From assembly GCA_963837465.1 (NCBI GenBank), contig CAWINB010000001.1:369929-433928 (forward strand): 64,000 bases of DNA, given 5' to 3'. This DNA comes from Candidatus Doudnabacteria bacterium. Lineage in GTDB: Bacteria > Patescibacteriota > Doudnabacteria > UBA920. A program made the position numbers and the translations under genes. The notes under the pieces are model-generated. The model had not been told where the DNA came from and did no database searches. It saw only the letters and a program-made list of their open reading frames with translations. Every line of letters begins with the position of its first letter. Positions within the stretch are counted from its first letter, which is position 1. Shown here in pieces: positions 14,785 to 46,943 of the stretch.

Positions 14785-14803
14785 AATAAATCTGCTGTCA
14801 AGC

Positions 14804-15307: not shown

Positions 15308-15404
15308 TTATTTAAAAAATTAATTACGGCCTGAAATTTCTAATGTGTCATCCCGGAATTTTTTAGGGCTGTAAAAAATATCCGGAATCCAGTAATTGAG
15401 AGGG

Positions 15405-15851: not shown

Positions 15852-15914
15852 AAATAGAATTCTCGATATCAGAACATCTCTCCCGGCTGCGTCTGGCCCT
15901 GGATGAGGCGCGTT

Positions 15915-16376: not shown

Positions 16377-16501
16377 AAGTGCGTCAAATCAATCCGCAAA
16401 AAGTTTTGCGGGGGCCGGGCTTGCCTGCCCGTCAGCCGCGGCGGACAAAACCGGCCCCGCAGGAACCGCGGTAAAAACATAAAAACCTTTCGGGCAAACA
16501 T

Positions 16502-17995: not shown

Positions 17996-18169
17996 GCTTG
18001 GCAGGAATGGCTAAGACTGACGGTTTATATAAAACATGGGGATGATAAACACGGATTTGAATCAGATGAAGACGGATATCATGGCATCCTGTCTGTGTTT
18101 ATCTGTTTGAATTATCTGTGTTAATCCGTTTCCAAAAATTTGTTCCCTTGTCATTAAAACAGGTTCCGG

Positions 18170-19822
18170 TTAAACCGGCGGCGCTATCCTGACCAAATCT
18201 TCCAGTGTCGTTGTGCCGTTTTTGACTTTTTCCAGTCCGTCTTCAAACAAAGTCCGGAAGCCCCGCTTGCGCGCCAGCTCCCAAATTTCCTGGGCGGAAG
18301 GAGCTTTAACGATAAAATCCTGCAGCGCTTTATCCACTTTAATAAACTCAAAAATACCGATACGGCCTTTGTAGCCCGTATGGTTGCAGGCCTGGCAGCC
18401 TTTGCCTCTGTAAAAAGTAATCATGGGCGCGGGAAAATATTTAACCGCGGCCGGAAACCTGGCGGCCAGTTCGGACTGCTGGACGTTGACGCTGTAACGG
18501 CAACTGTCGCAAATCCTCCTGACCAGGCGCTGGGCAATAATCATTTCCAGGGTTGACGCCACCAGGTAAGGTTCCACTCCCATATCCAACAAGCGCGGAA
18601 TGGCCGTGGAAGCATCGTTGGCGTGAAAAGTGGAAAACAGCAAATGCCCCGTTAAAGCGGCGTTAATCGCGACTTCGGCGGTAGCCCTGTCCCGGATTTC
18701 CCCGACCAAAATAATGTCGGGATCCTGCCTTAATATAGAGCGCAGGCCGTCGGCAAAATTTAAGTTGGTGGCGGTGTTAACCTGTATCTGGTTCATGGTC
18801 GGTATGCGGTACTCCACAGGATCCTCAATGGTGGTGATATTTATTTCCGAGTGGTTAAATGTTTTCAGCAGCGCGTACAGGCTGGTGGTCTTGCCGCTGC
18901 CGGTCGGACCGGTAACTAAAATCATGCCGAACGGATGCTCGGATGCTTCCAGCAGTTCGTCGTAAGCGTGGGCCGACAGGCCCAAATCGCTTAAGCTCAA
19001 ATTTTTTACGTACTCCGTAAGCAGCCGCATAACGACTTTTTCCCCGTTGACCGTGGGCACAATGGATATTCTTATGTCTATAACAATTTCCCCTTTGCTA
19101 AAGCGCATGGACCCGTCCTGGGCGCTGAAGTGTTCGTCAATTTTTAACCGGGCCTGGACTTTAATCCGGTTTAAAATATTTTCATAATAAATTTTGGGAA
19201 TTTTGCCAACTTCCTCCAGCACGCCGTCCACGCGGAAGCGGGTACAAACCTCGTCTTCGCGCGGCTCAAAGTGGATATCGGAGGCGCGGTAAATAATGGC
19301 TTCATCCAGGATTTGATCCAAAATTTCCGGCGCCACCCTTTTTTGAGCTTTGATAATCTGCACAAAACGCGCCTCCAGCGACTGGCGGTAATGGATAAAA
19401 GCCTGCTGCAAGTCTTCGGAAAAAGCGTAAGCCAAAACCAGTTTTTTCCCGGGAAAAAATCCCGAAAGCAAACCTGGGAGGGCGGGATTTTTGGGATTGT
19501 CCGTGGCAATTTCCATCTGGCTTTCAGTATTGGAAACAACAACAACATGCTGCTGTTCCGCGATGTCCTTGGGAATTTTCAACACGTCCTGCTTTTGCGG
19601 CGGGCGTTTGGACAAATCCGCGAAAACCGTGCCAAAACTTTCCGCCACAGCCTGACCCAAAAGCTCTTTGGTTAAAATACCCCCGGACAACAAATGTTCC
19701 AGGGCGGTCTGGTGGTGCGACAGCGCGTGCTGCTCGGCCGCCGCCATATCTTCGGCAGTAACGTAATTGCCGCGCAATAAAATATCCTTAACATTTATAT
19801 GGTCCAAATTCATAACTGACAA
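18170..19822 (-). CDS. pilB: type IV pilus assembly ATPase PilB (GspE family)
   Basis: Walker A VTGPTGSGKTTSLYA, ITTIEDPVEYR, Walker B/His-box ILVGEIRD...FSTFHANDA and the C-terminal tetracysteine CDSC...CQAC are all present. Confidence 0.9.
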   Translation of the reverse strand: MSVMNLDHINVKDILLRGNYVTAEDMAAAEQHALSHHQTALEHLLSGGILTKELLGQAVAESFGTVFADLSKRPPQKQDVLKIPKDIAEQQHVVVVSNTESQMEIATDNPKNPALPGLLSGFFPGKKLVLAYAFSEDLQQAFIHYRQSLEARFVQIIKAQKRVAPEILDQILDEAIIYRASDIHFEPREDEVCTRFRVDGVLEEVGKIPKIYYENILNRIKVQARLKIDEHFSAQDGSMRFSKGEIVIDIRISIVPTVNGEKVVMRLLTEYVKNLSLSDLGLSAHAYDELLEASEHPFGMILVTGPTGSGKTTSLYALLKTFNHSEINITTIEDPVEYRIPTMNQIQVNTATNLNFADGLRSILRQDPDIILVGEIRDRATAEVAINAALTGHLLFSTFHANDASTAIPRLLDMGVEPYLVASTLEMIIAQRLVRRICDSCRYSVNVQQSELAARFPAAVKYFPAPMITFYRGKGCQACNHTGYKGRIGIFEFIKVDKALQDFIVKAPSAQEIWELARKRGFRTLFEDGLEKVKNGTTTLEDLVRIAPPV

Positions 19823-19895
19823 TTTATAATATTATGCCGGGGGTTTGAAATGCTTCCTGCTTATTGACGGCATTAAACGGGGAAGTTCTATTGCC

Positions 19896-20267
19896 CTACT
19901 GTAAATAAATTTTTACCAAATTAAGTATTTCAGCCGGCGTAACAGTGCTCTTGATAATGTATTGCTTGGCTCCGTAAGCCTTAACCTTCACAATATCTTC
20001 GGTTTGGCCCAGATTGGAAAGTACCACTACCGGCGTAACAATCCCCAACTCCTGCATTTTTTTTAAAACGTCAAAACCGTCCATTTCAGGCATCATCAAA
20101 TCCAGAAGCACCAAATCGAAATGCTCGTGCTGAAGATTGGGAATAACCTGGTCCCCGCTGATGACATGCAAAGTACGTATGCCCTCGGCATTGAACTTAT
20201 GGGCCAAAACGCTTGCCATGGCCTGTTCGTCTTCCGCGATGAGGACCTTTTTATTTTTTTCCGTCAT
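19896..20267 (-). CDS. single-domain response regulator (CheY-like REC)
   Basis: 123 aa with LIAEDE, LVLLDLMMPEMDG and a conserved Lys. It lies immediately upstream of pilB. Confidence 0.8.
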   Translation of the reverse strand: MTEKNKKVLIAEDEQAMASVLAHKFNAEGIRTLHVISGDQVIPNLQHEHFDLVLLDLMMPEMDGFDVLKKMQELGIVTPVVVLSNLGQTEDIVKVKAYGAKQYIIKSTVTPAEILNLVKIYLQ

Positions 20268-20374
20268 ACAATAATAAGCGCGGGTTTATTTTTATTTCCT
20301 TAATTTAAGAGTTTTATCAGCTCGTTTATTATAACATATTTTGTAAAAAACAAAAGCCGCGAACTTTTAATTTT

Positions 20375-20404
20375 TTGACAAAAGGGACAAAACTATATTA
20401 TACT
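20375..20404 (+). promoter_or_regulatory. candidate sigma70-type promoter for pilA
   Basis: TTGACA at 20375..20380, with TATTAT/TATACT-like -10 candidates 15 to 18 nt downstream, in the divergent intergenic region. Confidence 0.35.
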
Positions 20405-20435
20405 ATTGTCAAATTAATTTTAATTAAAAAACTAA

Positions 20436-20975
20436 ATGAAACAAAAGCAAATTTTTTCTTTTAGCCATACAGGCTGGGGAGAAACTAAACCTTCCAAGTT
20501 CCAAGGGGTTGGAGTTACGACTCAACAAAGCCGGGGTTTTACTCTAATTGAAATTTTGCTGGTTATCGCCCTTATAGCCTTGTTGGCCGGTATTGTCATA
20601 TTAGCCGTTAATCCGGCCAAGCAACTGGCTGACGGCAGAAATACCCGAAGAATAGCCGATGTCAGCACAATCCTCAACGCCGCGCACGAGTATGCCATAG
20701 ACCACAACGGCAATTTGCCTTCAACCATCCAAAATAATACGGATTGCAGCGGAACCGCTTCCAATGAAATTTGCCAAACCGGCGGCAACTGCAGCGGCCT
20801 CACGGATTTGTCAGCGCTGACAAACAACCAAACCTATTTGACCGCCATACCCGTGGACCCTTCCATAACCACAACCAACAACGCGGGTTATTTTATTGAC
20901 CTTAACAACAATGGTCGCGTAACAGTTTGCGCCCCTAACTCCGAACTCGGAATAAACATCAGCGCCACCAGATAA
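20436..20975 (+). CDS. pilA: type IV major pilin (PilA-like)
   Basis: SRGFTLIEILLVIALIALLAGIVILAVNPAKQLADGRNTRRIADVSTILNA is a class III signal peptide plus a conserved pilin alpha1 helix. The C-terminal Cys pair gives a D-region. The 32-aa leader is unusually long. Confidence 0.8.
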   Translation: MKQKQIFSFSHTGWGETKPSKFQGVGVTTQQSRGFTLIEILLVIALIALLAGIVILAVNPAKQLADGRNTRRIADVSTILNAAHEYAIDHNGNLPSTIQNNTDCSGTASNEICQTGGNCSGLTDLSALTNNQTYLTAIPVDPSITTTNNAGYFIDLNNNGRVTVCAPNSELGINISATR

Positions 20976-20991
20976 ACTCCCATCGCGATTT

Positions 20992-21025
20992 AAACCCCCG
21001 GCTTCATAGCCGGGGGTTTTATTTT
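20992..21025 (+). terminator. rho-independent terminator after pilA
   Basis: cccccggc-ttcata-gccggggg followed by TTTTATTTT. Confidence 0.6.
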
Positions 21026-21047
21026 ATCGTTTTGCCTGAACCGCCAA

Positions 21048-21070
21048 GTGTCAAGGGTCACCCTTGACAC
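21048..21070. repeat. 23-bp perfect palindrome GTGTCAAGGGTCACCCTTGACAC (copy 1)
   Basis: It is a perfect inverted repeat. A near-identical copy (centre G instead of C) lies at 46943..46965. Confidence 0.7.
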
Positions 21071-21076
21071 TGTCCC

Positions 21077-24000
21077 CTATTGGCCTGTCGCGCCAGGAGC
21101 GGATGAACCCGGAGAAGAATTATCAGAGGCATCCGGGGCGCTGGCTGTACCGGAAGAAGCCGAAGGATCGGAAGCGGAAGTGTTGACGGGGGTTCCGGTT
21201 TGGCCGGAGGAGCCGGAAGCATCACTGCTATCCCCTGCCGTAGAGCCTGTGGAGGAGCCGGAAGCCGCCTGGCCGGTAGAATTTGGATCTGACTGCGGGG
21301 TTGAAGACCCGGAACCTGGCTGAGCAACTGTTTGCCCGGATGTATCTGGGATAGCGGACCCCGAACCCAAAGTCTGCCCACCGCCCTGCTGGTTATTATT
21401 GTTCTGGCTATTGCTGATTATCTGCCCCTGATTGCTCGGCTGGTTTACCACCACAATTTGGGAATTTAAGCTGGACTGCGACGGCGTGGTAGTCGGCTGG
21501 GCCAGGGCTATCCAGTCAAAACTGGTGTCGGCCGAAACCGGCTGGCTGGTCTGGATGGTAAAGCCGGTCAGTGTTTTAGTGGCGACGCCGTAGTAGAAGT
21601 TCGGCAAGCCCTGCGCGGTGACCGCAATTTTCGGCATAGTTTCGTAAGGCACATTAAAGGTTACCGCGGTCTGGTTGTTTCCGGCTGTAATTACCGCGGT
21701 TCCGGCGGTGTCAGCCCCCACGGTTATATGGCCGGCAGCCGTAATGCTGAACTGAGTGGTGGAGCCGTTATTCACCGTTAATATAGTGGAGGTGGCGATG
21801 GTGGAGGTGGCCAATAAACTGAACGAGCCGTCATTGGCAATAAGCAAGCGGTCCGCGCCGTTCTGCTGGAGCTGCAGGACATTGCCGCTGCCGGCCTGGT
21901 TTATCAGCAAAGCCGTATCGGTGGAGCTGGAAGCCAGCCGCATAAAGCTGGTAGTGGAAGTGGCGCTTGACAACTGTCCGTCATTTTGCCCAAAGACAAA
22001 AGTATTGTTAATAACCTGGTAGCCCGGTTTAACAAACACTAATATAGTGGGATTGGAAGATGTGTTGGCGGCCGGGTCGTAATCCTCCAGAGCCTGGCCG
22101 ATGACCTCGCCGCTGACTTCGGCTTTCATGGCGAGCCCTGGAATGTCGGAAGATGTCAGGAAGTCGCCGGCGTGGATGACCGTGGAAGTGGCAATTTGTA
22201 CCGGCACGCGTCCGGCCAAAGCGATGGCCGGATGCAGCGGATCCACAACATAGTTGGCTCCGTTCATAAACTGCACGCTGTTGCCTTCTATAATCATGGC
22301 CGGGTTGGTGGAAACCACTCCAAGCAAATGGCTGTCGTAAGCCGTGGCTGTCTCGCCGATTAAGCTGCCGGTGGAAGATGCCGTGCCAAGCGAACTAACC
22401 AGTTGGCCGGCGGCCACGGGATCCCGCGACGGGTAAATTTCGGCGTAATCGGTACAAGCGCCGGAACTCTGGAAAGTCAGACAATTAGCCGCCACCACAA
22501 AGGCCGAACCCGGAGTGGTAGTGCCCACGCCTACATTGCCGCCGGTAAATACCGCGGCGTAGTTGTTGCTGGCGCCGGTTGGGGCATTTACGTACAAACC
22601 GTAACCGTTGGTTACCGCGCCGCTGTTGGTAACAGATCCGCCCTGGATGGTCAAAGCCGAGGAACTGGAAATCGTCATATGGTTACCGGCAATCGCCGCG
22701 CCGGTAATGTTGATGACCGAAGCGTTGGCAATGGTGGTGGCGCTGGAAGAAGCCAGGGTGTAAGCGTTAAACAACGAACCGTAGGCAATTTGGTTTGTGT
22801 TGATGGCGCTGCCGGCGGAAAGCGTGTAAGTCAGGGCCGGAATGTTAATAGCGCGGTAATCGGAAACGGCAGTCAAAGTCGGGTTAAAGTTAATACCGGT
22901 AACAACACCGCTGGCGCCGCCGGTTTGGTTAATTGTCGGGCTGGCATTGATGGTATTAAACTGGGAGCTGCCGGAAGTAGGCCCAATAGGCTGCTGGATG
23001 TCCAGAATATTTACGGTGCTGCCGTTATTCTTGGTCAAATTGGAACCGGAAGAAATACGCAAACCGGCCGACATGCTAGCGCCCATCTTAAACACAAAGG
23101 CCGCGTTGGTTGTGTTGGCGGTGTTGGCCGTGGCGTCAAAACTCTGGCTGGCGCCGCTGCCGTAAATAAAGTCGCCGCTGCTGTCGACAGACAGCTCTTT
23201 GACGCCGTTGTCCTCGAATGTCAGGAAGTTGCCGCTGAAGTTGGATTGCGAATTAATGCCAAAATAAGTACCGTTGGCGGAGGCGCTGGACAAAGCCGTG
23301 GAGCCGAGACTGAGCAGCTCGGTGGTGTTGCTGGACGAAGCGTCTGTCGGAATGTTGACGCGGCCGGCCGGGGTAACAGTCAACAAAGACGCGCCGGTGG
23401 ACGAAGCAATGCTTAATAAGTTTGTAGCTGAGCCCGCTGACCCCTGAAGTGTCAATAAAGAGCCGGGCGTAGTTGTACCGATGCCGACATTGCCTCCGTT
23501 AAACACAGCCGCGTAATTATTGGCCGCTCCGCTGGGAGAATTAACTTCCAATCCGTAAGCGTTGGTGGTTGAAGCGTTAACGGCATCAGTATCTACCAAT
23601 AAACCATAAGAGTTGGTGAGTTTGACATTCTTTCCAACTAAAGGTAATCCGTTGACATCAAGACTGGAAGAAGTTGCTATAGTGTCAACAACAGTGGAAG
23701 CAGTCTGGTAAGTTATGGGATTAAACAGGACGTTGTAGACAGTATTAACGGGAGTGCCGGTAGCTAAGTTGTCAATTAAGCCGGATTGGGTTTCTATACT
23801 GCGGTAATCCACGGCGGAAGTTAAAGTCGGACTGACTAACAGGCCGCGGGTAATGCCGGAAGCGGCGGCGGTTTGGATGACAATCGGATGCAAGTTTTCT
23901 TCATTCCATACGGCGGAGCCTACTCCGGCGAACAAGCCGCCGGTATTTATCTGCCCGCCCGTGCCGGTCGTGGCTTGTTCGTAGTTGGTTGTGCCAAAAA

Positions 24001-27000
24001 CATATCCATAATAGGCCGCTCCGGTATTGTATTCGTCCACGTCAAAATTCATCTGACCACTGCTTCCGGCGTCAATATAAGTATCTCCTACCGAGCCAAG
24101 GTAAAGAAAACCGGAAGTGGATTGGATGTTTCCAGCGGCAGTAATAGCGCCATTGTTAGTTATGGCTCCCCCGTTAGTTAGCGTAAATTCATTAGTGCCG
24201 TTTTTTTGCAAGTTAATCAGGTTGCCGCTGAAATTTGACGGAGAGTTGATTGCCAGATAAGTTCCGTTGGCAGAAGGTGAGGATAATGAAGTGGGGCCAA
24301 GCTCGCAGAACAGGGACAGTTGAGGCAACAGACGTTGAAGAATTAGTGCTGGAAGCGTTTTGGGAAAGCAGGACGCCATTGGTTGGCAGGACTTCCAAGA
24401 TAGATTGGCCTGATGAAGATGAAACATTAACAGGAGTATTCATTCCCGTCCCCTGAATGTTAAAGTTTACCGTTGAGCTGGTAGCGTTTACTCCCGATAC
24501 AGTTCCGTTATCCTCAATATCCCCGCTGGCTGCCAAAGCGCTTGACCCTGTCCAGATGGCATTGTACCCATTAGTCCCCGACCCTGTAAGGCTGCTGCCG
24601 GCAGCAGTAATAGTTATCTGCCCCGGTGTAGAGGTGGTAATAGTGATGTTGGTTCCCGCGACCAGATTGGTGGGAGCATAGTTGTTTCCTGTGCCATCCG
24701 CGGCCAGCAGCTGTCCGGTAATGGTGGGAGCAGTGGAGGTTCCGGTACCGCCGTTGCTTACTCCTAAGCTACCGGTAACCTGGGAGCCATTTAGGGTAAT
24801 GGCGCTGTTGTAAAGATTACCGGATGCCGTGCTAAACACCGGCAGGTTCTGGGTTAAGGAAGATATTGTGGTGGAACCATTGGCGGCAACAGTCAGCAGG
24901 GAAGCTCCCGATGACGAAGCCACATTGAAAGGATTTAAGGTTCCCGTGCCCTGGATGTTAAAGGAGACGGTGGAAGATGTGGCTCCGACACCGGCAACCG
25001 TACCATTGTCCAGCAGCGCTCCGGCAGTCAAGGTGTTCGGTGAAGTCCAGATGGCGTCGTAGCCGGTGGTACCGGACAGGCTTGAGGCCGAAGCAAAGCC
25101 CAGGGTGGAAGTGGCTATCCACTGGGTGGAGTTGCCGGTGGTTTCCAGGATTTGTCCCAGGGTGCCCGAAGCATTGGTGCCGTCAAACAGGGCGCCGGTT
25201 AACTGTTCGCTGCCGGCAACCGTCAGCAGCTGGGCCGGGGTGGATGTGCCGATGCCGACGTTGCCGTTCTGCGAGCACGGTCAGCAGCTGGCTGCCGGTG
25301 GAGGAAGCTATGGTAAAGGGATTAACTCCCCCGCTGCCCTGGATGGCCAGGGTGGTAGAAGGGGTGGTGCTGCCAATGCCCAAAGAGTCGCCAAAGTAAG
25401 AGGGAGTGGAGGTGGCGGAGATGGCTAAGGCGCCGGAGCTTAAATGCCGCCCGCTCCCACGTTCAGGCCGCCCTGGATCTGCAGCTGGCCGGCTATCAGA
25501 GCGTCATTCCTGACCTGCAAGTTGCCTATGTCGGCGCTGCCGGCTACCAGGGAGGTGGTTTCCGTGCCGGAGATGTTGACGACGGAGATGGAGTTGGAGC
25601 CATAATTGGCCACATAGGCGTAGCGGCCGGAGACGTAGATGGAATAGGGACTGGTGCCCACGCTGGCGGTAGCCACCTGGGTTGGAGCTGTGGGGTTGGA
25701 GATGTCAACGACGGAGATGGTGTTGGAGTTTTTATTTGCCACATAGGCGTAGCGGCCGGAGACGTAGATGGAATAGGGACTGGTGCCCACGGTAGTTGTG
25801 GCCACCTGCACCGGAGCTGTGGGGTTGGAGATGTCAACGACGGAGATGGTGTTGGAGTTAAGATTTGCCACATAGGCGTAGCGGCCGGAGACGTAGATGG
25901 AATTGGGCAAGCTTCCCACGGTGGTGGTAGCGATTTGCTTGGGAGCGCCGGGATTGGAGATGTCAACGACGGAGATGTTGGCGGAGCCTTGGTTTGCCAC
26001 ATAGGCGTAACGGCCGGAGACGTAGATGGAATTGGGCTGGAATCCCACGCTGGCGGTAGCCACCTGGGTTGGAGCTGTGGGGTTGGAGATATCAACTACG
26101 GAGATGTTGGAGGAGTTAAGATTTGCCACATAGGCATAGCGGCCGGAGACGTAATGCTTTGAGGATTATTTCCCACATTGGCGGCGGCAACTTGAGTAGG
26201 GCTCGAAGGGTTTGAGATATCAACTACGGAGATATTATTGGAGATATTATTTGCCACATAGGCATAGCGGCCGGAGACGTAGACGGAAACGGGCCCGGCT
26301 CCCACGCTGGTCGTGGCTACCTGGACCGGAGCTGAGGTATTGGAGATGTCGACTACCGAGATGGTACCGGAGCTATAGTTTGCCGTGTAGGCGTAGCGGC
26401 CGGAGACGTAGACGGACTCGGGATTGCTCCCCACGCTGGTAGTAGCCACCTGGGTAACCTGGGAGCTATTGGCAATGATGTTGGAAATGCTGCCGGTTAC
26501 GGTTAAGGCTTGGCTGGGGGTGGAGCTGCCGATGCCGACGTTGCCGTTGGCTAAAACAGTCAGCAGCTGGCTGCCGGATGAGGAAGCTACGGTAAAGACC
26601 GGAATGGTGGGATAAGTGGAAGTGCCTTCCACCGTTAACGTGGAGCCGGGAGTGGTGGAGCCAATGCCCACTCGCTGGGTGGCCGTCACCCTTAATACGG
26701 ATATACCGCTGGAGGAAGCTATGTTGAGCAGGTCGCTGGATCCGGCTGTGCCCTGGATGGCCAGGGTGGTAGAAGGGGTGGTGCTGCCGATGCCCAAAGA
26801 GTCGCCAAAGTAAGAGGGAGTGGAGGTGGCGGAGATGGCTAAGGCGCCGGAGCTTAAGATGCCGCCCGCTCCCACGTTCAAGCCACCCTGGATCTGCGAG
26901 CTGGCCGGCTATCAGAGCGTCATTCCTGACCTGCAGGTTGCCTATGTCGGCGCTGCCGGCTACCAGGGAGGTGGTTTCCGTGCCGGAGATGTCAACGACG

Positions 27001-30000
27001 GAGATGGTGTTGGAGTTAAGATTTGCCACATAGGCGTAGCGGCCGGAGACGTAGATGGAAATGGGATTGGTTCCCACGCTGGTGGTGGCTACCTGGACCG
27101 GAGCTAGAGGGTTTGAGATGTCGACTACCGAGATGTTGTTAGAACTATAGTTGGCCACATAGGCGTAGCGGCCGGAGACGTAGATGGAATTTGGACTGGT
27201 GCCCACGGTGGTGGTGGCGATCTGGATGGGAGCTAGAGGGTTTGAGATGTCGACTACCGAGATGTTGTTAGAACTATAGTTGGCCACATAGGCGTAGCGG
27301 CCGGAGACGTAGATGGAAATGGGATTGGTTCCCACACTGGTGGTGGCCACCTGGGTTGGAGCTTTGGGGTTGGAGATATCAACTACGGAGATGTTGGAGG
27401 AGTTAATATTTGCCACATAGGCGTAGCGGCCGGAGACGTAGACGGAAACGGGATTGGTTCCCACACTGGTGGTGGCCACCTGAACCGGAGCTGTGGGGTT
27501 TGAGATGTCAACTACGGAGATGTTGGAGGAGTTAATATTTGCCACATAGGCGTAGCGGCCGGAGACGTAGATGGAAAAGGGATTGGTTCCCACGGTAGTG
27601 GTGGCCACCTGAACCGGAGCTGTGGGGTTTGAGATGTCAACTACGGAGATGGTGTTGGAAGTACGATTTGCCACATAGGCGTAGCGGCCGGAGACGTAGA
27701 CGGAATAAGGATTGGTTCCCACATTAGCGGTGGCCACCTGGATGGGAGCTGAAGGATTGGAGATGTCAACTACGGAAATGGTGTTGGAGCCGGAATTCGC
27801 CACGTAAACATAGCGGCCGGAAACATAGATGGAAGCGGGGAGATTGCCCACGCTGGTAGTAGCCACCTGGGTAATATTGGCATTGCCGCCAATTAAGTTG
27901 GAAACACTGCCAACAACAGACAAGGCCTGGGTGGGAGTTGTGGTGCCGATACCCACATTGCCATTGCTTGCCACAAACAGTTCAGAAGCTCCCGATGACG
28001 AAGCCACATTGAAGGGATTTAAGGTTCCCGTGCCCTGGATGTTGAAGGAGACGGTGGAAGATGTGGCGTTGACTCCGGCTACGCTGCCGTTGTCAATAAT
28101 GGCTCCGGTACCAAGAGCGGAAGGAGAAGTCCAGATGGCGTTATAACCATTAGTACCACCCGACAGTCCCCCTCCGGTGGCATTTAAAGTGTTACCGCTA
28201 AAGCTTAAGCCGGTGCCCAGCTGTACGGATTCCAGGTTGCTGTTGGCATCGGACATTACTAAACTTGAAGGGGTCAGCGTAGCAACGTTTACGTTGCCGA
28301 TGGAAGAAATATTAAAGTAAGGCGAACCGCTGGAAGAAGCTACGGTCAACAGGTTTGAAGTTTGCGACGAGGTGGCAATTATTAAGACTGTTGGTTGGGT
28401 GGTGGAAGATGAGGCTACGGATAATTGAGCGGTCGGAGTGGTAGTGCCTATACCCAACCAACCTTGAGCACTTACTACCGAATAAGTCGTAGCTCCTCCG
28501 CTACTGGCCCAAACTTGTAGGTTTGCAGTTTGACCACCCGCGCCTCTTATATTGAACGGAACACCACCACTGTTAGTGGAAGTAATAATGACTTGGCCGG
28601 CAGCTATAGTCCCAGCCACATCCAAAGGATAAACAGCAGTATTTTTTCCAATCCCCACATCCCCATTAGCCAGCACCGTTAAGCCAGTAGCGCCCGACGA
28701 AGAAGCAATGGTCAAAAGGCTGCCGGATTGTCCAGCGGTTCCTTGAACCAACAAATTACTCGTCGGCGCACTGGTTCCAATCCCCACATTGCCGCCCATA
28801 ATAGCAGCAGCATAGTTACTCGAGGCGCCAGTGGAAGCCTGGAGATAAATTCCATAAGCATTTGTGGTGGAAGCGTTCAAGGTGCCACCCAATATGGATA
28901 AAGCCGAAGAAGAACTGATGATAACTTGGTTAGCCACTTGCGGATTATACAGCGCCATAGTGGCGGCACTGTTTAGGGTGGTTACCGCGGTAGTGGAAAC
29001 ACTGTTATACGTTATGGGGTTAAACAGGGCATTGTACTGGTTTAAGGCCGGGGTAGTAGAAGCGTCCAGGTTTACGGTAGTACTTGTGGCAAGCAAGTTG
29101 ATATACTGATAGGCTTGGGTAACGGTTGGATTAAAATAAAGGCTGGTGGTGGTGCCACTGGCATTTCCCTTTTGATTTATAGTAGTTAATAAATCTAAGA
29201 GGTTATTTGTTGCGGAACCGGATGCTGGCGAAAAAGTTGATGATATTTTAACGGCTCCTCCTTCACCGCTGGTAGAAATTGAGGGACCTAAAGGTTGCTC
29301 CAATATATTATATCCCGCATTAGTATTGGTTATTTCACCGTATAAAGAAAGCGGTTGTCCACTGGAAGCTTTAAAGGTATTTCCGGCAGTAAAATCAATT
29401 TCCCCATTTAGCGAAAGGAGGCCCGCACTGGTAACTTTAAACTCACTCGTTCCGCCATTAATTAAATTCAATAAATTTCCACTTGTTCCCTGAATATCAA
29501 CCAAATCAGCCGGGGTAGTTGTTCCTATCCCCACGTTCCCCGCTTGCGTAACATGCAGGAAGGATGTTCCGGAAGAAGAAGCCACGTCAAAGGGATCCAG
29601 CGTGCCGCTGCCCTGAAGTTCAAAGGCTACTGTAGAAGAAGTGGCATTAATGCCGGCGACTGTGCCATTGTCGAGAACAATACCCTTAGACACGGAAGTC
29701 GGAGAAGTAAACATGGCATCATAGCCAACCGTGCCGCCGGTTACCCCCGCTCCTCCGGTAATGCCGAGAGTTGAAGTAGCTACCCACTGCGTGCCGCTGC
29801 CCGTGGTTTCAAGCAGCATGCCCGGAGTACCAGAGGCATTTGTTGAGTCAAACAGGGCGCCGGTCAATTGCTCATTTCCGGCAACAACCAGCTTTTGGCT
29901 GGGGGTAGTAGTGGCAATACCCACATTCCCACCAGAGGTAATGTGTAAGTAAGACTGGCCGGTGGAAGTAGAGACGTCAAACAAATCCGAACTGTAAGAG

Positions 30001-33000
30001 GAGCTCGCCTGGACTTGCAGTAAAGTTTGCGGCGTAATGGTGCCAATGCCAAACTGACCGTTCTGGTCAACCACATCGTAAATTCCCTTACTCGTCCTGC
30101 CCCACTCTGCAATGGGTACAGATTGGCCGGTAGTGCCGGTTACAGTTAAAATAATCTGGCTGCCGCTTCCGTTACCGATGAGATTAGAAGTATTAAAGTC
30201 TAATATACCCCCGGTCAAAGTGCCGCCGTTGGTTACGGATAAAATACTACCACCGACATTATTGAAAACTTGAAAAGGAACGGTCGTTTGCGTACTATTA
30301 GACCGCACAACCAACTGCTGCTCGTCGCTACTGCCCTGGATATACAAGGCTGCCTGGGGGCTAGTCGTCCCAATCCCGACATTGCCGCTGTTGGCAACAT
30401 ACAACACACTACTGCCACTGGAAGAAGCGATATTCAAAAGCGAGGCAGTAGAAGTAGTTCCCTGCAAAGTTAACAACGATGAAGCGGAAGTTGTGCCGAG
30501 CCCAAGATTACCACCAACCCAGACATTGCCATTAAATCCACCGGCATAAGCATTGGTAATAGACCCGGCGGTAATGGAAGGTGCGTCTCCATAAACACTA
30601 TAAGCAAGAGTAGTGGTACCTACTCCGCTATTTTTAACTTGTCCATAAACACCGTAGGCTAGTGGAATGCCGGTGTTAGCCGCGCCGCTAAAAGTCGCGG
30701 TACCAGAAACTCCCACTAAAGTTGATGGCGAGTTGCTGGCAAGAGTTCCGGCGGAACGAATAGCCGAACCCAGGACTCCGGCTCCAAGGCCGGTATTTGC
30801 GGAGCCGCTTAGCGTTAAAGTAGCACTGACGTCGGTAGAGCTTGCCGTAGCTGAAGTGCTGGCACTGATAATAAGAGTGCTTGCGTCAATTTGGTTAACT
30901 CCGCTAAATGTACCAAACTGGCTAAGATTTACACCGGCACCTGGAAATACATATCCACTATTAAGAGCCGTCGTCAGGGTTCCGCCCCCATACGGCCTGG
31001 CATAACTGCTTTGTTCCAGTTGCGGCCCCCAGGCGGCTATAGCTGATGTACCAACAACAATTCTGGCAACCACGCTGGTAAATACTCCTGTTAAATTGCT
31101 GGTGACGGCATAGCGCTGCCAGCTTGGACCTATGGTAAAAGTCGTAGGCGTACCTGAGGCGACGTTGGTATCTATTTCCAAAGCTGTGGTGGTTGCGCCG
31201 CCCTGGGATTTTAAGTAGACCGAAAAAGTCCAAGGCGTAGTCGAGCCGCTAACTACAGCCTGGCTGATGTTGCCTGTGGCGGAAGTTCCGGAAAGGTTTG
31301 AGGCAAGAAGGGCATCCAACGGAGATGTAGCAGTAGCCGCGGCAACGCTATTCATATTAACTTTTATCCATTGGCTGGCAGAAAAATTCGTAGCACTGAC
31401 CAAAAAGTTTTGCCACTCCCCCATACCCAACCAAGGCGTGCTAAGGTAACCGTCAATTTCCGTAGTTTGACCATCACCTCCATTGGTAATACCGTTACCA
31501 ACGTCCAGGGGGCCAATAGGATATTGGTTATCTACACCAATATTGCCCGCGCTGTTAATATACAAATTACTGGTTCCTGAAGAAGAAACTACATTCAAAA
31601 TATCCTGAGCGCCGCTTCCCTGAATAGCCAAAGTCTGACCCGCGGTTGTAGTCCCAATCCCCACATTCCCCGCACGGGTCACGACTAACTCACTAGCTCC
31701 CGATGACGAAGCCACATTGAAGGGATTTAAGGTTCCCGTGCCCTGGATGTTGAAGGAGACGGCGGAAGAAGTAGCTCCAATGCCCGCCACCGCGCCGTTG
31801 TCCAGCAGTGCTCCTGCGGCAAGAGTGCTTGGGGAAGTCCAGATGGCATCGTAACCTGTTGTACCGCCGGACAGGGAGCCTGCGGCATTTAAAGTGTTAC
31901 CGCTAAAGCTTAAGCCGGTGCCCAGTTGTACGGATTCCAGGTTGCTGTTGGCATCACTCATTACCAAAGAAGAAGGAGTTAAAGTGGCGATACTGACATT
32001 GCCGATGGCAGATACATTTAAGTAAGACGAGCCACTGGAAGAAGCTACGGTTAGGAGGTTTGAAGTTTGGGAAGAAGTGCTTTGGACAAAGAGCAGAGAG
32101 CTTGGAGCAGTTGTCCCAATTCCGACGTTGCCATTAGTTATTATTCTCATTGCTTCTGTTCCGCCGTTGTTACCAACTACAAATTTAATATAATCAGCAG
32201 TTCCTGCGCCGCTCGTTGACTTAAGCGTAAGAAAACCATTTGTTGCTCCGCTTCCATAAAGTGTAGTGTTATTGCCAGAGTTGTTGTTAATGTTTCCAAA
32301 AAGAGCAGTCCCATTTAAGTTAGCCTGGAAAGTACCCGACGCAATCACTGCCGCCCCTCCACTTACACTCAATTGCCCATCCGTCTTAATCGTCCCCGCT
32401 CCGCTTCTGTACAAATCCGCCGTAGCATCACCAAAATTTATGCCGCCGGAAGCAAGAGTGGAAGAAGCAAAAGACAAAGCCGCTATTGGTGTCGTTGTCC
32501 CAATCCCGACATTGCCGAGCATATAGTTATTCCCTGCCCCATTTGCACTCAATGTACCTGCCGTTATAAGGTTTGCCCAGCCAGTAGAGCTATTTAAACT
32601 AGCAAATGTGCTGTATGCTCCGCTATTGGCTGAAATATCAAAATTCAATTGTGCCCCTACACCAGAATAACCTGCTATTGGTGTGTTATACATTCTGATT
32701 ATGCTTGACTGAGAAGTGTTGCCGTTTGTTTTTAATCCCGTGCCTGATAAATACAATGCTGGGGATGCTTGGGAATTAACACCAGCAGTTGCCGCGGTTA
32801 AATTTTGAAGCGTCAATCCATTTGACGGCGTGGCTCCAAGACCCTCACTATCTACTGTTAGCAAGCTCCCCGGACTCGTAGTCCCAATCCCAACGTTGCC
32901 ACCATTGAATATCGCGGCGTAGTTGTTAGTGGCGCCAGTAGGAGCGTTCACATAAAGACCCGCACCGTTAGTGGTAGAAGCATTTAGTGTTCCACCCTGG

Positions 33001-36000
33001 ATTAAAGCTCCATAGGAATTGGTTAATAAAGTATTACCAGTGGTGGAAGCAATCGGAGCGCCGCTGATAGTTAAGGTGGAAGAAGTGGCAATTGTGTAAG
33101 TTGAAGTCGAAGCCGTACCGTAAGTAATGGGATTAAATAATACATTGTAAACCTGGGAGGCAGGGTTGGCGGCATTGGAAATAATCTCGCTTATGCCGGA
33201 GGCAGTTTCTAGGGAACGATAATCGTAAACGGATTTTAGACTCGGAGTAAGATAAATGCCACGGGTGATACCGGAGGCTGAACCTGTTTGATTGATGGTT
33301 TCCAACGAGGTTACTGCTGCAAAATTTCCTGTACCAGAAGAAGGCTGGAAGTCAGCGTTAGTTCGTCCAATTTCCAATATGCCTCCACTACCATTAGCAT
33401 AGCTTTGTGTTGAGTTTGCAAGAATATTTACTTGATAACAGCCACCACCACAACCATTCCCCCTAACACTCAATGTCCCACCACTTGGAGGTTGAATTTG
33501 ATGCAGTATAAAAACAGACGCATCTGTCTGAATTATCCCCGCTCCGCTCCTGTACAAATCTGCCGTGTCATCGCCAAAGTTGATTCCGTTGGCGGCAGTG
33601 GTGTTAGTGCCACTACCGACAGTTAATAATGCCGCTGGTGTCGTTGTCCCAATCCCCACATTGCCGCCATTAAATATGGCGGCGTAGTTGTTAATGGCGC
33701 CGGTTGGGGCGTTAATAATGGCGCCGTAGGCGTTAGTTACGTTGCTTACAGCGTTACCCTGGATCATTAAAGCCGAAGCATTGGTAACGGTGGCGGTGGA
33801 AGAACCCAGCGGCGTGGCCAGGTTTAAGGTAGAAGCATTGGCTAAAGTGTAAATGGAAGACGAAGCCGAGGCGTAGGTGAACGGATTAAACAGAACATTG
33901 TAAGCCGTGGAAATTGCGGAAGAAGTGGAAAGGGTGGTTGTGGTAGCCGCGACTTCCAAGGAGCGGTAGTCAGCCACGGAAGTTAATATCTGGTTCAAAT
34001 AAAGTCCGCGGGTAATGCCGGAAGCACTGCCGGTTTGGTTAATCTTATTCTGAAATACCATGGTATTCAAAACAGCGGTGCCGGAAGTAGGGCCAAAAAT
34101 ATCACCTGTTGAACCAACTCCAGCTATTCCGTAAGTGCCGCTGGTGCCGGTCATAATATCGCTATTATTGGATAGGGTAATACCTATTGCGGCATTGTTG
34201 GTATTATTACCAGCCAAGGTGATTTGCGTACCACCAGCAGCAACTATAAAACCAGACGGGGTTATTTGGAGGTTGCTACTAATATTCACCCTACCGTTCG
34301 GATTCACCCAGAACAAAGGCAAGCCCGTTGATGAAGCCACGGTAAAAGCGTTAGTCGTACCTGCTGCTCCTACAACCGCCAGAGTGCTTTGCGGCACGCT
34401 CGTTCCAATGCCCACATTACCGTTAGCCGAAACAGTCAGCAAGGAAGAGCCGGATGAGGAGGCTACATTAAATGGATTTAAAATTCCCGATCCCTGAATG
34501 TTGAATGAGACAGTGGAAGAAGTAGCTCCAATGCCCGCAACCGTACCGTTGTCCAGCAGCGCTCCTGCGGTAAGAGTGCTTGGGGAAGTCCAGATGGCGT
34601 CGTAGCCTGTTGTACCGCCGGACAGGGAGCCTGCGGCATTTAAAGTATTACCGCTAAAGCTTAAGCCGGTGCCCAGTTGTACGGATGACAGGTTATTGTT
34701 GGCATCACTCATTACCAAAGAAGAAGGAGTTAAAGTGGCGATACTGACATTGCCGATGGCAGATACATTTAAGTAAGACGAGCCACTGGAAGATGCAATG
34801 GTCAACAGGTTTGAAGTTTGTGAAGATGTGGCGATTATTAAAACCGTTGGCTGGGTGGTGGAAGAAGAGGCTACGGTTAGCTGGGCTGCTGGGGTTGATG
34901 TTCCAAGACCAATATTACCGCCAGCCAATACTTCCATAACCGACGCGCTATTTGTTTCCAAATCCATTAGTGCCTTGGTACCGGTAGCCGAAGACAAAGC
35001 GCCTAAGGTATTTACATAAATAGCCCTAAACCCGCCTCCCCCTGTTGTGCTATCGCCGACGATTATTGACAAACCCTTTGAACTTTGCCCGTTACCGCTG
35101 GAGGCCGTAAAGTTTGTGTTCATCATCTGCTGACTCGTAAGGGAGGTGCCATTTATTTGAAGCCCTGTTACCCCGGCAGTCGGCGATAAAATTAAAAAGG
35201 TGCCCTGTATAAGCCCAGTACTATTAACACTAAATTCACTCGTCCCGCCATTAAATGCTTGGATTAAATTGCCGCTCGTACCTTGGACGGATAAAGCCGC
35301 TGACGGGGTAGTTGTCCCAATCCCCACATTCCCACCCATAAAGGCAGCGGCGTAGTTGTTGGATGCGCCGGAGTTGGCGTTAACGTAGAGGCCGTAGGAA
35401 TTAGTGACGCTGGTAAGCGCTACGCCCTGGATGCTTAAGGCGGTGGAAGATGAAATCGTTGTGGAAGCCGTAGTCCCATTTGGCGCTCCGGCAATGTTTA
35501 AGGTGGAGGCGTTGGCTAGGGTGTAGAGGGAAGAAGAAGCGGAAGTATAGGTAAGCGGATTGAATAATACATTGTATGCTGTGGAAATGTTGGTTGAGGT
35601 GGAAAGAGTGGTGGTGGTGGCTGCGGTTTCCAGGTTGCGGTAGTCAAAGACGGAAGTAAGAGTAGGTGCCAGTATAATTCCTCGGGTGATGCCGGTGGAA
35701 ATTCCGGTTTGGTTAATGGTTGGGTTTATGCTTAAGCTATTAAAAGTTCCTGTTCCCGAAGTCGGCGCAAAAGTATTTTGGATTTGAGCAATACCATTAA
35801 CGCCACTTACCGGAGTTTGGAGGGCATTCTCCGATCCCAAGGTAACTTCGTAACCACTGGTGCTGCTAAGACTTCCTAAAATTTTTATGTTTTCGCTTGA
35901 CCCGCTGTTTTCAATAGTTCCAGAAGTTAGTATGGTACCTATAGTCAAACTACCGACAGCGGTTATATTTCCTGAGCTATCGACTTTAAACCGATTTAAA

Positions 36001-39000
36001 CCGCTATTTTCAAACTGAACAAAATTCCCGCCAAAACTGCTTGGGGAATTAATACCTAAGTATGTGCCATTAGCAGAACCGGCAACCAGCGAGTTGCTGC
36101 CTAAAAGAACAGCCGGTGTAGTGCTGGCAGTTAATGTCCCCCCCGCTGTAGTAGTAGCATCCACAGCCAACTGGGTAGATTGGTTGGCAAAGACTTGCAG
36201 TATAGAGGAGCCGGAAGATGAAGCAACTTTAAACGGATTCAAACTGCCTGTTCCCTGGATGTTAAAGCTAACGGCGGAAGAACTGGCGTTGACTCCAACG
36301 ACCGTACCGTTGTTCAGAAGATCGGCAGACGATGTTAGAGTATTGACGCCATTGTAGTAAGCATCCTGGCCTATGGTACCGGAACCGATATCAGAAGCAG
36401 GGCCGATGTATAATCCCCCTGATCCTGTGGAGTAGACTGTGCCTGCTGTCAGGGAGCTTAAGGTGGTGGAACCTGTTACGTTTAAGCTGTCGCCAATATT
36501 CTGGTTGCCGGTAGCGGTTAGGTTGCCGTTAAAGTACCCGTCCCCTACCACGGAAAGTTGCGAAACCGGCGACGTGGTATTAATGCCAAAGTAACCGGCC
36601 GAAGTAATGACGCTGGAAGTCGCGCCGGAGGTATTGTAAATATCTAAAATGTCAGCGGTCTGGCCCGAAACGGGGGTTAAGCTTAACACCGGCGTGGTGG
36701 AAGATGTGGAACCTACGGCAAGTTTGGCTGTTGGATTAACAACGCCAATACCGACCAAATCTGTGGAGGTGGCCAAGTGGACAATGTTGGGGGAAATCCA
36801 GGTCCAGCCGCCGGCCGAGGAGCCGCCGATGCTGGTAATGGTGCCGCAAGTCAGCTGGCCGCTGCCGTCGGTCTGGATGGCGGAAGCGGAATTATCACAG
36901 TTAAGCACGGCGCCGACGCGCACGTTGCTGCCCGCCACAACATTGCCGCTGGTTTGCAAACTGCCGGCCGTGGCGTTAAGCACGCCAAGCCCCAGGCCGC
37001 CGCTGGCAAAAATATTTCCCGCGACCGAAAAATTGGTTACCGGCGAACTGGAATTTATGCCGACATTGCCATTGGCCAAAATACTTAAAATTTGCGCGCT
37101 GGAAGAAGACGCTACGGCAAAAATCTGCAGCGTGGATTGGGTTGAAGATCCCTGCACTGTAAAAATGGCGGCCGGCGAAGAAGAATTAATCCCCAGCTCG
37201 CTTCCGTTATCAAACAATAACGAATTGCCCGTGGTGGACGAGCCGGTGTATTTAACCAGATAATTGTTCGCGCCGCTGCCGGAAAGTTTGTTGTTAAAAG
37301 CCAGCCAGTCGGAATTTTGCAGCTGGCCGGTGTTGACGGAGGAAGCAAACGGCAGGTTAATGCTGAGGGAGTTTGTGGAAGTTGAGATGTTGAAAATATT
37401 TCCGGTTGTGCCGGTGGCAACATTCGCAATGACGTTTGGGGACAAGCCAATGGCTGTGGAAGTACCGATAATAATTTGGCTGCCATCGCCGCTTGTAAAG
37501 GCAAGGCCGCCGCCCAGGGCCAAATTGCCCAGGGTGGTGGTGCCGGTGCCGCCGCTGGCCGGAGTTAAGGCGCTGGTTAAAGTTAATTGGCTGATGGTGG
37601 TAGTTGCAAGAGTGGAAAGTCCGCTGACATTAATCTGGCCCGCGGTTAAGACAGTAAGAGTTGTGGAAGCAAGCGAGCTGGAGCCGCTCACCGTAAGCCG
37701 GCCAATTGCGGCGTCGGCCAAAGTTGATGTGGCGCCGACGCTTAACTGGCCGAGCAAAGTTTCGTCGCCGGTCAGCAGAGCATCTCCCACCACGCTTAAA
37801 GCGCTGCCCGGTGTTGAAGTGCCGATGCCCAGGTTGCCGCCTGCCGTTACGGTGAGCAAAGTTTGCCCGGAGGCCGATGCAAGCGTAAACAAATTCGTGG
37901 GTGAACCCGTAGCCTGCAAAAACAACTCGGAGCTTGGCGCGGTGGTGCCGATCCCCAAACTGGAACCTGAAAGGAATAAAATGTTTTCCGGGCTTACCGT
38001 CGTGCCAAAGGATTGGTAATAGGCGAAACTGCCGGGCGTCCCCGTCGCTACCCCGCTGCTGCCGCCCGTACCGCTGCCTACCAGGCTCCAGGCCGTACCG
38101 TTAAAAAAATTGTACTGGTCGGTGTCCGTGTTAAAAATCAAAAGTCCGGCGGCGGGGCTGGCAATCGCGTCACGCTGCGCCTGCGTCATGCGCGGCGCCA
38201 AAAATCCCTTGCTGGAAGAATCAAGCTCCAGCAAACTTGACGCGTCCGGAGTCGTAGTGCCTAAGGACAACTGGCTGGTAGAGGCTGTGTAAAATAAATT
38301 GCCGTTATCCTGGCTTAAGCCGTTGGCGCCCTGAAAAACCACGCTGCCGGCGGTGAAACCGGGGTTAATATTTGAAACATTTAAATCGGCAATTGTCGTG
38401 CTGCCGCTAAAAGAGGCGTTGCCGTTAAAATCAGAACCGCCCCGCACGTTCAAAGAAATTATATCGGCCTGGTTGGCGCTCAGCGAGTCGCCGGACAACT
38501 GGCTGAAGCCGGCTATTGAACCTATGGTGCCGTTTGAATTTTCCGAACCTACGTAGGCAATCGGCGCCGCCGGTCCGCCGATAAACGACTGACCCGCCCC
38601 GGCGGGACCTTGCGGCCCCTGGGCTCCCGGCGCTCCGTTTTGCCCTTTGAATTTTCCCCGCGCGAGATAAGCGTTCAGCCTGTCATCAATAATCGAATAA
38701 ACTTGGGATTCGTTCAGACCCAAAAGCTGGTTTATAATTTGCGTTCCATCCTGGCCATTAACCACAACAGGGCTGTTGGCATTATCCGCAATACCGGAGG
38801 TGGAGTTTCGCGCTCCTGACTTGCTGTATAAAATATTTGTAATGCCGCCCCGGACATCCGGTTGTTTGGGGGAAATTAAACTCGACCACGCAACGGAAGC
38901 CACAAGTCCGGTTAGCGCGATAATTCCGGTGGCTAAAATCAGCGGAAGATTTGAGGATACCGGTCTGGCAAAACTGCCGTAAAGCTGTTTGATTTTTTCT

Positions 39001-39782
39001 TTGCCTAAAACCAATCCGGCCAGGAATTCCCCGTTCTGCCGCTGAGGCTCAGTCCCGGTTTCGGAAGGCAAATCAAAATTGGAAACAAAATTTTCCATTA
39101 ACGGCAACCGTTCGGCTGCCCGGGTCACCGCCGGCATGGCAATCGGAACGACCGCCGGAATTGAATTCTGAACCAAAGCTTGCTCCGCTTGGTCCGCGAT
39201 TTTTTTGGTCTTTTGTTCCGCCTCCGCCAAACCCCGTGACAGGGTATCAATACGGTTTTCAATATTTTCAAAAACCTCTTTTTTTAAATTGCTCAGCCGC
39301 ATAATTTGCTCCGGCAATTGCTGGACCGGTAATGCCGGTGCCGAACCAATAATATGCTGCTGGGGTGCTTGGACCTGCTGGTTATTCTGCCCGGACCCTG
39401 GCCGATCCAAACTTTGAATATTCGCTTGCTCGGAGGCAACGTGCACGGGGATTTTGTTTCCCGTCTCGTCCAGGACTTCGGAAATCCCATTTTTGTAATT
39501 TTTTATAAAATCATCCAAAGCCGCCCTGGTTGTTACCCAGTTCCGGCCCATTTTGAAACCCTTTAACTTGCCGGTTCTGCAAAGGAAACCAAGGTAGTCC
39601 TGATGGTAGTGGGTCAGCTTACTGGCCTCGGAAAGGGAAACAAAGTCAGATTGGTTTTGAGCCGGAAAAGGAGGCTGGAACGAAGCGCCGGTTGTCTGCC
39701 TGGAATCCGAAAAGCCCAATCCAATTTCCGTATGGTTTGGTTGGCTCGGGTTTTCTAAATTTTTATCTGTTTTTTCGTCCAC
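21077..39782 (-). CDS. giant (about 6,200 aa) type-II membrane surface protein: cytoplasmic excisionase-type HTH, single TM, extracellular collagen-like / tail-fibre-like / YVTN beta-propeller region, interrupted by at least four frameshifts
   Basis: The track ORFs 26466..39782 (4438 aa), 26096..26881, 25440..26129, 25183..25383, 24213..25031 and 21077..24427 carry the same repeat families (GNVGIGTTTP units, YVSGRYAYVAN blades) across their junctions. N-terminus: HTH LSEASKLTHYHQDYLGFLCRTGKLKGFKMGRNWVTTRAALDDFI, then a coiled coil, a TM LPLILATGIIALTGLVASVAW near aa 285 (positive-inside), the collagen-like stretch GAPGAQGPQGPAGAG, and KGFLAPRMTQAQRDAIASPAAGLLIFNTDTDQYNFFNGTAW. Confidence 0.7.
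25560..27830. repeat. imperfect tandem array of about 120-bp units (16 or more, each one YVTN beta-propeller blade), plus a roughly 370-bp segmental duplication
   Basis: The unit gatgtcaacgacggagatg...tttgccacataggcgtagcggccggagacgtagatggaa recurs with a roughly 120-bp period. The segment 25240..25610 matches 26510..27030 apart from indels. Confidence 0.75.
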
Positions 39783-45653: not shown

Positions 45654-46943
45654 ATGAACTACGTTACCCTGGGCCACAATGTTTTCCGCGGCAAGTCCAC
45701 ACCCATACAGTTTTTGGATAATGACCGGCTGCGGCATATGTATATGATAGGCAAAACCGGCGTGGGCAAATCCACCCTGTTTGCCAATATGATGCTGCAG
45801 GACATTATTAACCTGCGCGGCGCCTGCTTTATAGACCCTCACGGCGAGGCAATATCGTGGCTGCTGCAAAACATCCCCAAAGGCCGGCTGGAAGATGTGA
45901 TATTGTTTGACCCATCCAATACGGAAAATCCCGTAGGCTTAAATCTCCTGGAAGCTAGCACGGAAAGCGAGCGGGATTTTTTGGTTGGCGAACTTATTGA
46001 AATTTTTTACAAGCTGTTTGATCCGCAAAAAACCGGCATCATCGGCCCGCAATTTGAACATTGGCTGAGAAACGCGGCGCTGACTATTATGGCCGACCCG
46101 GCCGGTGGCAGTCTTTTGGAAATTCCGCGGCTGTTTACCGATAAAAGCTTTGAGCGCCACAAACGCGAATTTGTTAAAGACCCCCAGGTAATGGAATTCT
46201 GGACCGGACAGATGGCTAAAACGAGTGATTTCCACAAAAGCGAAATGCTGAATTATTTTACTTCCAAATTCGGCCACTTTTTAAACAATTCGCTCTGCCG
46301 CAATATCATCGGCCAAAACCACAGCGGCTTTAATTTTGGGGACATTTTAAAAAAAGAAAAAATCCTGCTGGTGGATTTATCCAAGGGAAAAATCGGCGAA
46401 CTTAATTCCAGATTTTTGGGTTTGATTTTAATTTCCAAGCTGCAGGCGGCGGTGCTGAAACGGGCGCGCCTTAAACCCGGCGAGTATCCGCCGTTTTACC
46501 TTTACGTGGACGAGTTCCAGAACATGACCACGGATACTTTTGCCAGCATGCTTTCGGAGTCGCGCAAATACGGGCTTGGCGTGCACCTGACCAACCAGTA
46601 CTTCCAGCAGCTGCCGCAAAATATCCAGGACGCGGTCCTGGGGAACGCGGGCACGCTGCTGAGTTTTGCCCTGGGCGTGGAAGATGCCGAACTGTTGGAA
46701 AAGCAGCTATATCCTTTTACCAAAGAAGACCTGTCCAATTTGGGAAAATTTAATTTTTACATTAAGCTGATGTCCAACGGCCAGGCCACGCAGGCTTTTT
46801 CCGGCATCAGTCAACAGCCCTTAAAGCGGGCCGAAACCGACCACGGCGAAACCATAAAAACCCTGAGCCAGCTGGCCTACGGCAGTCCCCGCCTGCTGGT
46901 GGAACAGGAACTCCAGCGCAGAATAAGAACGAACGGCATTTAG
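45654..46943 (+). CDS. soluble VirD4/TraG/TraD-like (type IV coupling protein family) P-loop ATPase
   Basis: Walker A is YMIGKTGVGKSTL. Walker B plus the downstream motif FYLYVDEFQNMTTDTFASMLSESRKYGLGVHLTNQYFQQL...LGNAGTLLSF matches the TrwB/VirD4 pattern hhhDE...(R/K)K.G....Q...QL. There is no N-terminal TM segment and the protein is only 429 aa. Confidence 0.65.
   Translation: MNYVTLGHNVFRGKSTPIQFLDNDRLRHMYMIGKTGVGKSTLFANMMLQDIINLRGACFIDPHGEAISWLLQNIPKGRLEDVILFDPSNTENPVGLNLLEASTESERDFLVGELIEIFYKLFDPQKTGIIGPQFEHWLRNAALTIMADPAGGSLLEIPRLFTDKSFERHKREFVKDPQVMEFWTGQMAKTSDFHKSEMLNYFTSKFGHFLNNSLCRNIIGQNHSGFNFGDILKKEKILLVDLSKGKIGELNSRFLGLILISKLQAAVLKRARLKPGEYPPFYLYVDEFQNMTTDTFASMLSESRKYGLGVHLTNQYFQQLPQNIQDAVLGNAGTLLSFALGVEDAELLEKQLYPFTKEDLSNLGKFNFYIKLMSNGQATQAFSGISQQPLKRAETDHGETIKTLSQLAYGSPRLLVEQELQRRIRTNGI

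Follow-up and report, generated by a model that had tools for sequence, protein, structure and literature searches.

Five single-base frameshifts at CTGCAG and GATGC sites in a giant LVIVD propeller gene of a Candidatus Doudnabacteria genome, probably methylation-linked consensus errors

Is a giant gene that loses its reading frame five times within a few kilobases a decaying or switching gene, or is it an intact gene that has been misread? The question is raised by a 64,000-nucleotide stretch of a Candidatus Doudnabacteria genome (assembly GCA_963837465.1, contig CAWINB010000001.1, positions 369,929 to 433,928; here called the window), in which a minus-strand gene encoding LVIVD beta-propellers changes frame between 24.2 and 26.9 kb. 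A sequence-only reading of this DNA had reported that the giant gene repeatedly loses frame while the same repeat families continue across every junction, and had weighed an artefact against inactivation or phase variation. Both observations were confirmed, and the breaks number five, the one at 24304 having been missed in a count of "at least four." We conclude, with a probability of roughly 0.75, that all five arose as consensus errors when long reads of methylated CTGCAG and GATGC sites were assembled, and that they are not mutations. Our confidence that they are artefacts of some kind is higher than our confidence in the methylation mechanism.

Five frame breaks and their repair

The lesions were located by reading the minus strand and by comparison with a paralogous copy, the consensus of the LVIVD blades, and homologues. 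The gene and the five frameshift sites (FS1 to FS5) are as follows.

21077..39782, minus strand: giant gene, a single open reading frame (ORF) after five 1-nt repairs, with Pfam LVIVD matches and homologues
FS1, 26894..26900: plus strand reads CTGC[G]AG; extra base at 26898
FS2, 26150..26158: plus strand reads GTA[-]ATGC, minus strand AGCAT[-]TACGTC; base missing between 26153 and 26154
FS3, 25441..25448: plus strand reads TTAA[-]ATGCC; base missing between 25443 and 25444
FS4, 25269..25275: plus strand reads CTGC[G]AG; extra base at 25273
FS5, 24302..24308: plus strand reads CT[C]GCAG; extra base at 24304

The signs of the five shifts are +1, -1, -1, +1, and +1. In the deposited sequence, the longest unbroken piece of the gene (26466..39782, 4,438 aa) is followed in other frames by open stretches at 26908→26099, 26165→25443, 25503→25186, 25280→24216, and 24439→21080, and the source annotation lists fragments of 4,438 aa and 1,100 aa as separate proteins. 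Five 1-nt edits turn these pieces into one ORF of 18,705 nt (6,234 aa; 39782→21077) without an internal stop. The Pfam LVIVD beta-propeller family (PF08309) matches the fragments with E values of 3.8e-38, 3.5e-14, and 5e-35, and the domain families are identical on both sides of every frame break. The giant gene is most likely intact and encodes one secreted or surface protein of 6,234 aa.

Part of the broken region is a tandem duplication of a ~1.4-kb module, 25295-26590 (copy A) versus 26706-28007 (copy B), with 81% identity overall. Its main features are the following.

25569..26455, minus strand: LVIVD beta-propeller array of module A, 6.9 repeats of 129 nt
26986..27870, minus strand: LVIVD beta-propeller array of module B, 6.9 repeats of 129 nt
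25335..25575, minus strand: near-identical block in module A, with its partner at 26749-26991 in module B

The repaired module B has 472 aa and the repaired module A 427 aa, and the ratio of nonsynonymous to synonymous substitution rates between them is 0.36. All breaks had earlier been assigned to a near-identical duplicated segment of ~370 bp and equated with 1-nt differences between its copies. The duplication itself stands, but the near-identical block is shorter, ~240 nt, and its copies differ by four substitutions and two single-base indels, which are FS3 and FS1. Only these two breaks lie in the block; FS4 lies in an 87%-identical part of the duplication, FS2 lies in the LVIVD array, and FS5 is ~1 kb outside any duplication. 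The pair of sequences quoted as an example was also imprecise, as copy B reads gccaacggc and not gcaaacggc. The block encodes 81 identical residues after repair, and identity in the rest of the duplication is 80 to 88%. A stretch of ~240 nt that is near-identical within an otherwise ~80% identical duplication suggests that gene conversion has recently taken place between the propeller modules.

The comparisons point to the original sequence at each site. In copy A, the counterpart of FS1 (25479-25484) is an unbroken CTGCAG whose flanks are identical over ~40 nt, which indicates that FS1 was originally CTGCAG. At FS2, the LVIVD blade consensus on the coding strand is ...ATCTACGTCTCC, and at the position corresponding to FS3, copy B has TTAAGATGCC (26855-26863); relative to copy B and the LVIVD consensus, FS2 and FS3 have each lost the G of GATGC (on the coding strand, the last C of GCATC). 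Repair of FS4 to CTGCAG yields LLTVLQNGNVGIG, which is found verbatim in homologue P0023. FS5 sits in a conserved domain, where 39 high-scoring segment pairs with homologues cross the junction in the repaired frame. Its repair gives VPVLQLG, and because "PVLQLG" is conserved in at least 12 homologues, the original codons at FS5 were CTG CAG.

A shared motif and its probable cause

With both strands counted, the window contains exactly three copies of the 9-mer GCTCGCAGA, and these are FS1, FS4, and FS5, each of which is an extra G in CTGC[G]AG. The copy at FS5 is in the orientation opposite to that of the other two; FS4 and FS5 also have the 11-mer GCTCGCAGAAC in common. With the lost G at FS2 and FS3, all five lesions directly adjoin, on its 5' side, the adenine of CTGCAG or GATGC. 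No homopolymer or simple repeat is present at any of the five sites (contexts CTGCGAG, GTAATGC, and TTAAATGCC). That the motif is active in both orientations argues for a cause at the level of the DNA or of DNA reading, not of translation.

Contigs assembled independently of the deposited genome point to the same motif. Apart from one 699,532-bp contig, only short Logan contigs from runs ERR10755945 and ERR10755938 were seen to carry genes of the source organism; further look-ups found no additional independent contigs. Together, three ERR10755945 contigs cover 17,125 nt of the window (6087-12259, 18885-24303, and 46940-52472), without a gap and with only three differences. All three differences are transitions in which the window has C or G and the contig has T or A, in a TY/RA context (Y, pyrimidine; R, purine).

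18885..24303, plus strand: coverage by contig L003 of ERR10755945, gapless, 99.98% identity
9789: window C, contig T; last C of GCATC
23480: window G, contig A; G of GATGC, synonymous (ATC/ATT)
48673: window G, contig A; GACC (reverse complement GGTCAGCAG), inside the gene for a 2,256-aa LysM protein

The differences at 9789 and 23480 fall on the same G of GATGC that FS2 and FS3 delete, and given that 26 GATGC sites were compared, the probability that two transitions hit that G by chance is ~7e-6. Five of five indels and two of three substitutions adjoin the adenine of CTGCAG or GATGC. The base at 9789 decides between Leu and Phe in an Nramp transporter; alignments with Protein Data Bank structures were uninformative, as the position is not conserved. 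The third difference, at 48673, has an RA context outside CTGCAG and GATGC, and on the coding strand, it is the first C of CAGCAG that is affected.

L003 is the sole independent contig that reaches a lesion site, and it terminates at 24303, directly ahead of the extra C of FS5 at 24304. A de Bruijn graph of the window alone (k = 31) has an unbroken unitig from 23901 to 25364 and no break at FS5, so the reads of ERR10755945 must branch or fail exactly at FS5.

A 699,532-bp contig from an organism that was sampled once fits a long-read metagenome assembly, most probably from the Oxford Nanopore platform. We infer that the organism's DNA carries N6-methyladenine (m6A) in CTGCAG (PstI-type) and in GATGC/GCATC (SfaNI-type). 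The altered pore signal would render the base 5' of the methylated adenine ambiguous, and the consensus would gain a G at three CTGCAG sites, giving CTGC[G]AG, and lose a G at two GATGC sites, giving [-]ATGC. Both motifs are documented m6A targets in other bacteria, GATGC/GCATC being methylated at position 2 (PMC8754150).

Errors of a related kind are known. In nanopore R10.4.1 data, methylation induces ambiguous R/Y positions with the minimal shared motif RA/TY, and only some of these positions turn into assembly errors (Lohde et al. 2024, PMC11610573); strand-specific C-to-T and G-to-A (C2T/G2A) errors persist in nanopore-only assemblies (PMC11610603). The present errors resemble these in recurring at short motifs that adjoin an adenine, in affecting a subset of the motif sites, and in that all three substitutions relative to the independent contigs are C/T or G/A in the TY/RA context; the indels hit that same position next to the adenine. 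They differ from the published errors in that the consequential ones are ±1 indels clustered in 2.6 kb, and in that the platform and the methylation are here inferred from the assembly and the motifs. The residual indels that split genes in long-read assemblies, typically at homopolymers, are likewise single-base changes that break intact ORFs, but none of the five sites in the giant gene is in a homopolymer.

Several points weigh against the assignment to methylation. The platform of the assembly and of the two runs is presumed, and searches of papers and supplements for the run and analysis accessions returned nothing. The errors described in PMC11610573 and PMC11610603 are substitutions, and indels are not described there. 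Within the window, 21 CTGCAG and 97 GATGC sites are intact, including the CTGCAG at 25479, which has the ~40-nt context of FS1; the error is therefore not deterministic. The lesions are also significantly clustered, affecting three of five CTGCAG and two of seven GATGC sites in 24.2 to 27.0 kb and none of 19 and none of 92, respectively, elsewhere (Fisher p ~0.005 for each motif). Such clustering might come from reads that were mapped or polished less well in the tandem duplication, from locally low coverage, or from strain heterogeneity. Lastly, two internal paralogues of FS4 read L-A-N-G (...ANGNVGIG), which makes GCA[G]AAC a possible alternative repair at that site.

Other explanations of the breaks

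The errors might have arisen in assembly or polishing with no role for methylation, through reads mis-mapped within the tandem duplication or through a mixture of strains in a hypervariable surface gene. They do cluster in and beside the 1.4-kb duplication, the contig break at 24303 could mark a point of strain divergence, and the near-identical block suggests gene conversion or recombination. We nevertheless consider this origin unlikely, because it leaves unaccounted for both the position of all five indels 5' of the A in CTGCAG or GATGC and the substitutions at 9789 and 23480 at the same GATGC position, and because FS5 is ~1 kb beyond the duplication. The artefact branch of the sequence-only reading is favored, but not in the form of the collapsed repeat that it proposed: the indels are motif specific, and one is outside the duplication.

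Giant repeat-rich surface genes often decay, and the indels are present in the deposited sequence, from which the source annotation calls two separate proteins. Genuine recent pseudogenization would have begun with a first frameshift at 26898 that inactivated the gene, the later indels having accumulated downstream under relaxed selection. A decaying pseudogene is expected to have a mixed spectrum of lesions over its inactivated part. Here all five events are ±1 nt at two motifs, three of them yielding the same 9-mer, and there are no nonsense substitutions and no larger deletions. Spontaneous indels concentrate in homopolymers, where none of the five is found. A frame of 1,120 codons is still open downstream of the last shift, and of the 5.8 kb that lie downstream of FS1, the first 2.7 kb hold all of the shifts (p ~0.02 if uniform). 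The independent contig, rather than reading through FS5, stops there. Taken with the identical 9-mers, the absence of nonsense mutations, and the open frame, this makes inactivation, the second possibility raised earlier, quite improbable.

A further explanation accepts the motifs and their methylation but takes the indels as real and heterogeneous in the population. A process that targets methylated CTGCAG and GATGC, such as error-prone repair at restriction-modification sites, would generate ±1 indels that truncate or silence the giant surface protein of this uncultivated bacterium, and the contig break at FS5 would reflect two alleles. We regard this as very unlikely.

Reversible on/off truncation of an adhesin-like protein by phase variation, also raised by the sequence-only reading, is less credible still. 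The gene for a large surface protein is the usual type of target, frameshifts in such a gene are what phase-variable adhesins with simple-sequence contingency loci would show, and a population with two alleles could produce the contig break at FS5. Contingency loci, however, switch by slippage in homopolymers or short tandem repeats, and no such tract is present at any of the five sites. The shifts, moreover, are multiple and non-compensating, and five of mixed sign (+1, -1, -1, +1, +1) cannot serve as a switch.

Programmed ribosomal frameshifting or transcriptional slippage that restores the frame is effectively refuted, for although a +1 shift after CTC at FS1 and FS4 would give the Leu-Gln of CTGCAG, such signals are slippery sites of fixed orientation that usually act in a single event, whereas here five shifts in a row, some forward and some backward, would allow only a negligible yield, X XXY YYZ heptamers and long homopolymers are absent, and the reversal of the shared 9-mer at FS5 excludes a signal in the mRNA.

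If the breaks are methylation-linked consensus errors, a single surface protein of 6,234 aa is broken up in the deposited genome into at least five fragments, annotated as multiple proteins or as pseudogenes. A short motif common to several frameshifts (GCTCGCAGA or (A)ATGC) would then be a cheap diagnostic of such errors in long-read-only metagenome-assembled genomes (MAGs), and it would indirectly reveal the likely methylation motifs of the organism. The breaks hold no new biology unless the indels prove real.

The giant protein, its surroundings, and further indels in the window

Membership of the giant protein in the LVIVD family follows from significant PF08309 matches together with tandem 43-aa units (the 129-nt repeats). 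The predicted product most likely comprises a tandem pair of seven-bladed LVIVD propellers along with many fibre-like repeats ("SSTVSFNIQGTG...NGNVGIGTTTP"). Its homologues are mostly from Patescibacteria MAGs, have identities in the 40 to 60% range (at most ~57%), and are up to 5,397 aa long; some are annotated as "tail fiber domain-containing" or "beta-propeller fold lactonase family." A scan of GTDB genomes, from which the source genome is missing, found relatives in Patescibacteria MAGs. The protein has LVIVD propellers and fibre-like repeats in common with the giant LVIVD or "tail fiber domain-containing" surface proteins of Patescibacteria (candidate phyla radiation), from which it differs in having two tandem propeller modules and in its length, which exceeds that of every homologue listed. 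Homologue searches and an exhaustive search of representatives yielded no near-identical independent copy of the frameshift region, returning only homologues of at most 57% identity and the source's own fragments. Exact-protein look-ups of two large fragments and of protein P0001 returned no record, and a megablast search against Escherichia coli genomes gave no match.

A putative cell-surface role of the giant protein fits the neighborhood, which holds type IV pilus genes (PilB, PilC, and prepilin-like) and the gene for the 2,256-aa LysM protein. Two type IV pilus or pseudopilin clusters, at 14100-20975 and 57479-61883, flank the two giant surface-protein genes; they contain PilB-like and PilC-like ATPase and platform proteins and proteins with prepilin N-terminal motifs, including proteins of 470 and 610 aa. 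The predicted N terminus of the giant protein (…LSEASKLTHYHQDYLGFLCRTGKLKGFKMGRNWVTTRAALDDF…; 39500-39782, minus strand) resembles a helix-turn-helix of the excisionase/MerR type, which is odd for a presumed surface protein, and the GTG start of the gene may be wrong.

A further indel was found in an unrelated gene. Two overlapping minus-strand ORFs, 3303..4226 and 2825..3424, each contain DUF5666, and removal of one G from the GGG at 3333-3335 fuses them into a 466-aa secreted repeat protein with a signal peptide. Once repaired, the junction (RDMSLQARSGTFVGTVTAVNGSSFTL) is parallel to the repeat before it (RDMSQQQKNASFSGSVSSVNGGSFVL). The window would thus hold a sixth single-base error or frameshift, of the homopolymer type, and its presence in an unrelated gene suggests that the assembly holds residual indels elsewhere too.

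Another of the ERR10755945 contigs, L011, ends at 46940, next to GCAT|TTAG, and there shares the 9-mer TAAATGCCG with FS3. Its end, within 46934-46943, coincides with the stop codon of a TraD-like ORF (45654..46943) and with the start of a perfect hairpin with 13-nt arms. A base of GATGC may have been lost at 46939/46940, but such a loss is unproven: the 8-mer TAAATGCC is common, with 11 sites in the window, and the ORF would gain only 16 aa.

At the edge of the window, a Mutator-type transposase at 1515-2435 was considered as another frameshifted gene and rejected, as its open frame of 363 codons looks intact. The gene (PF00872; 1515-2606, minus strand) encodes a Mutator-family transposase with a Cys-rich N-terminal extension.

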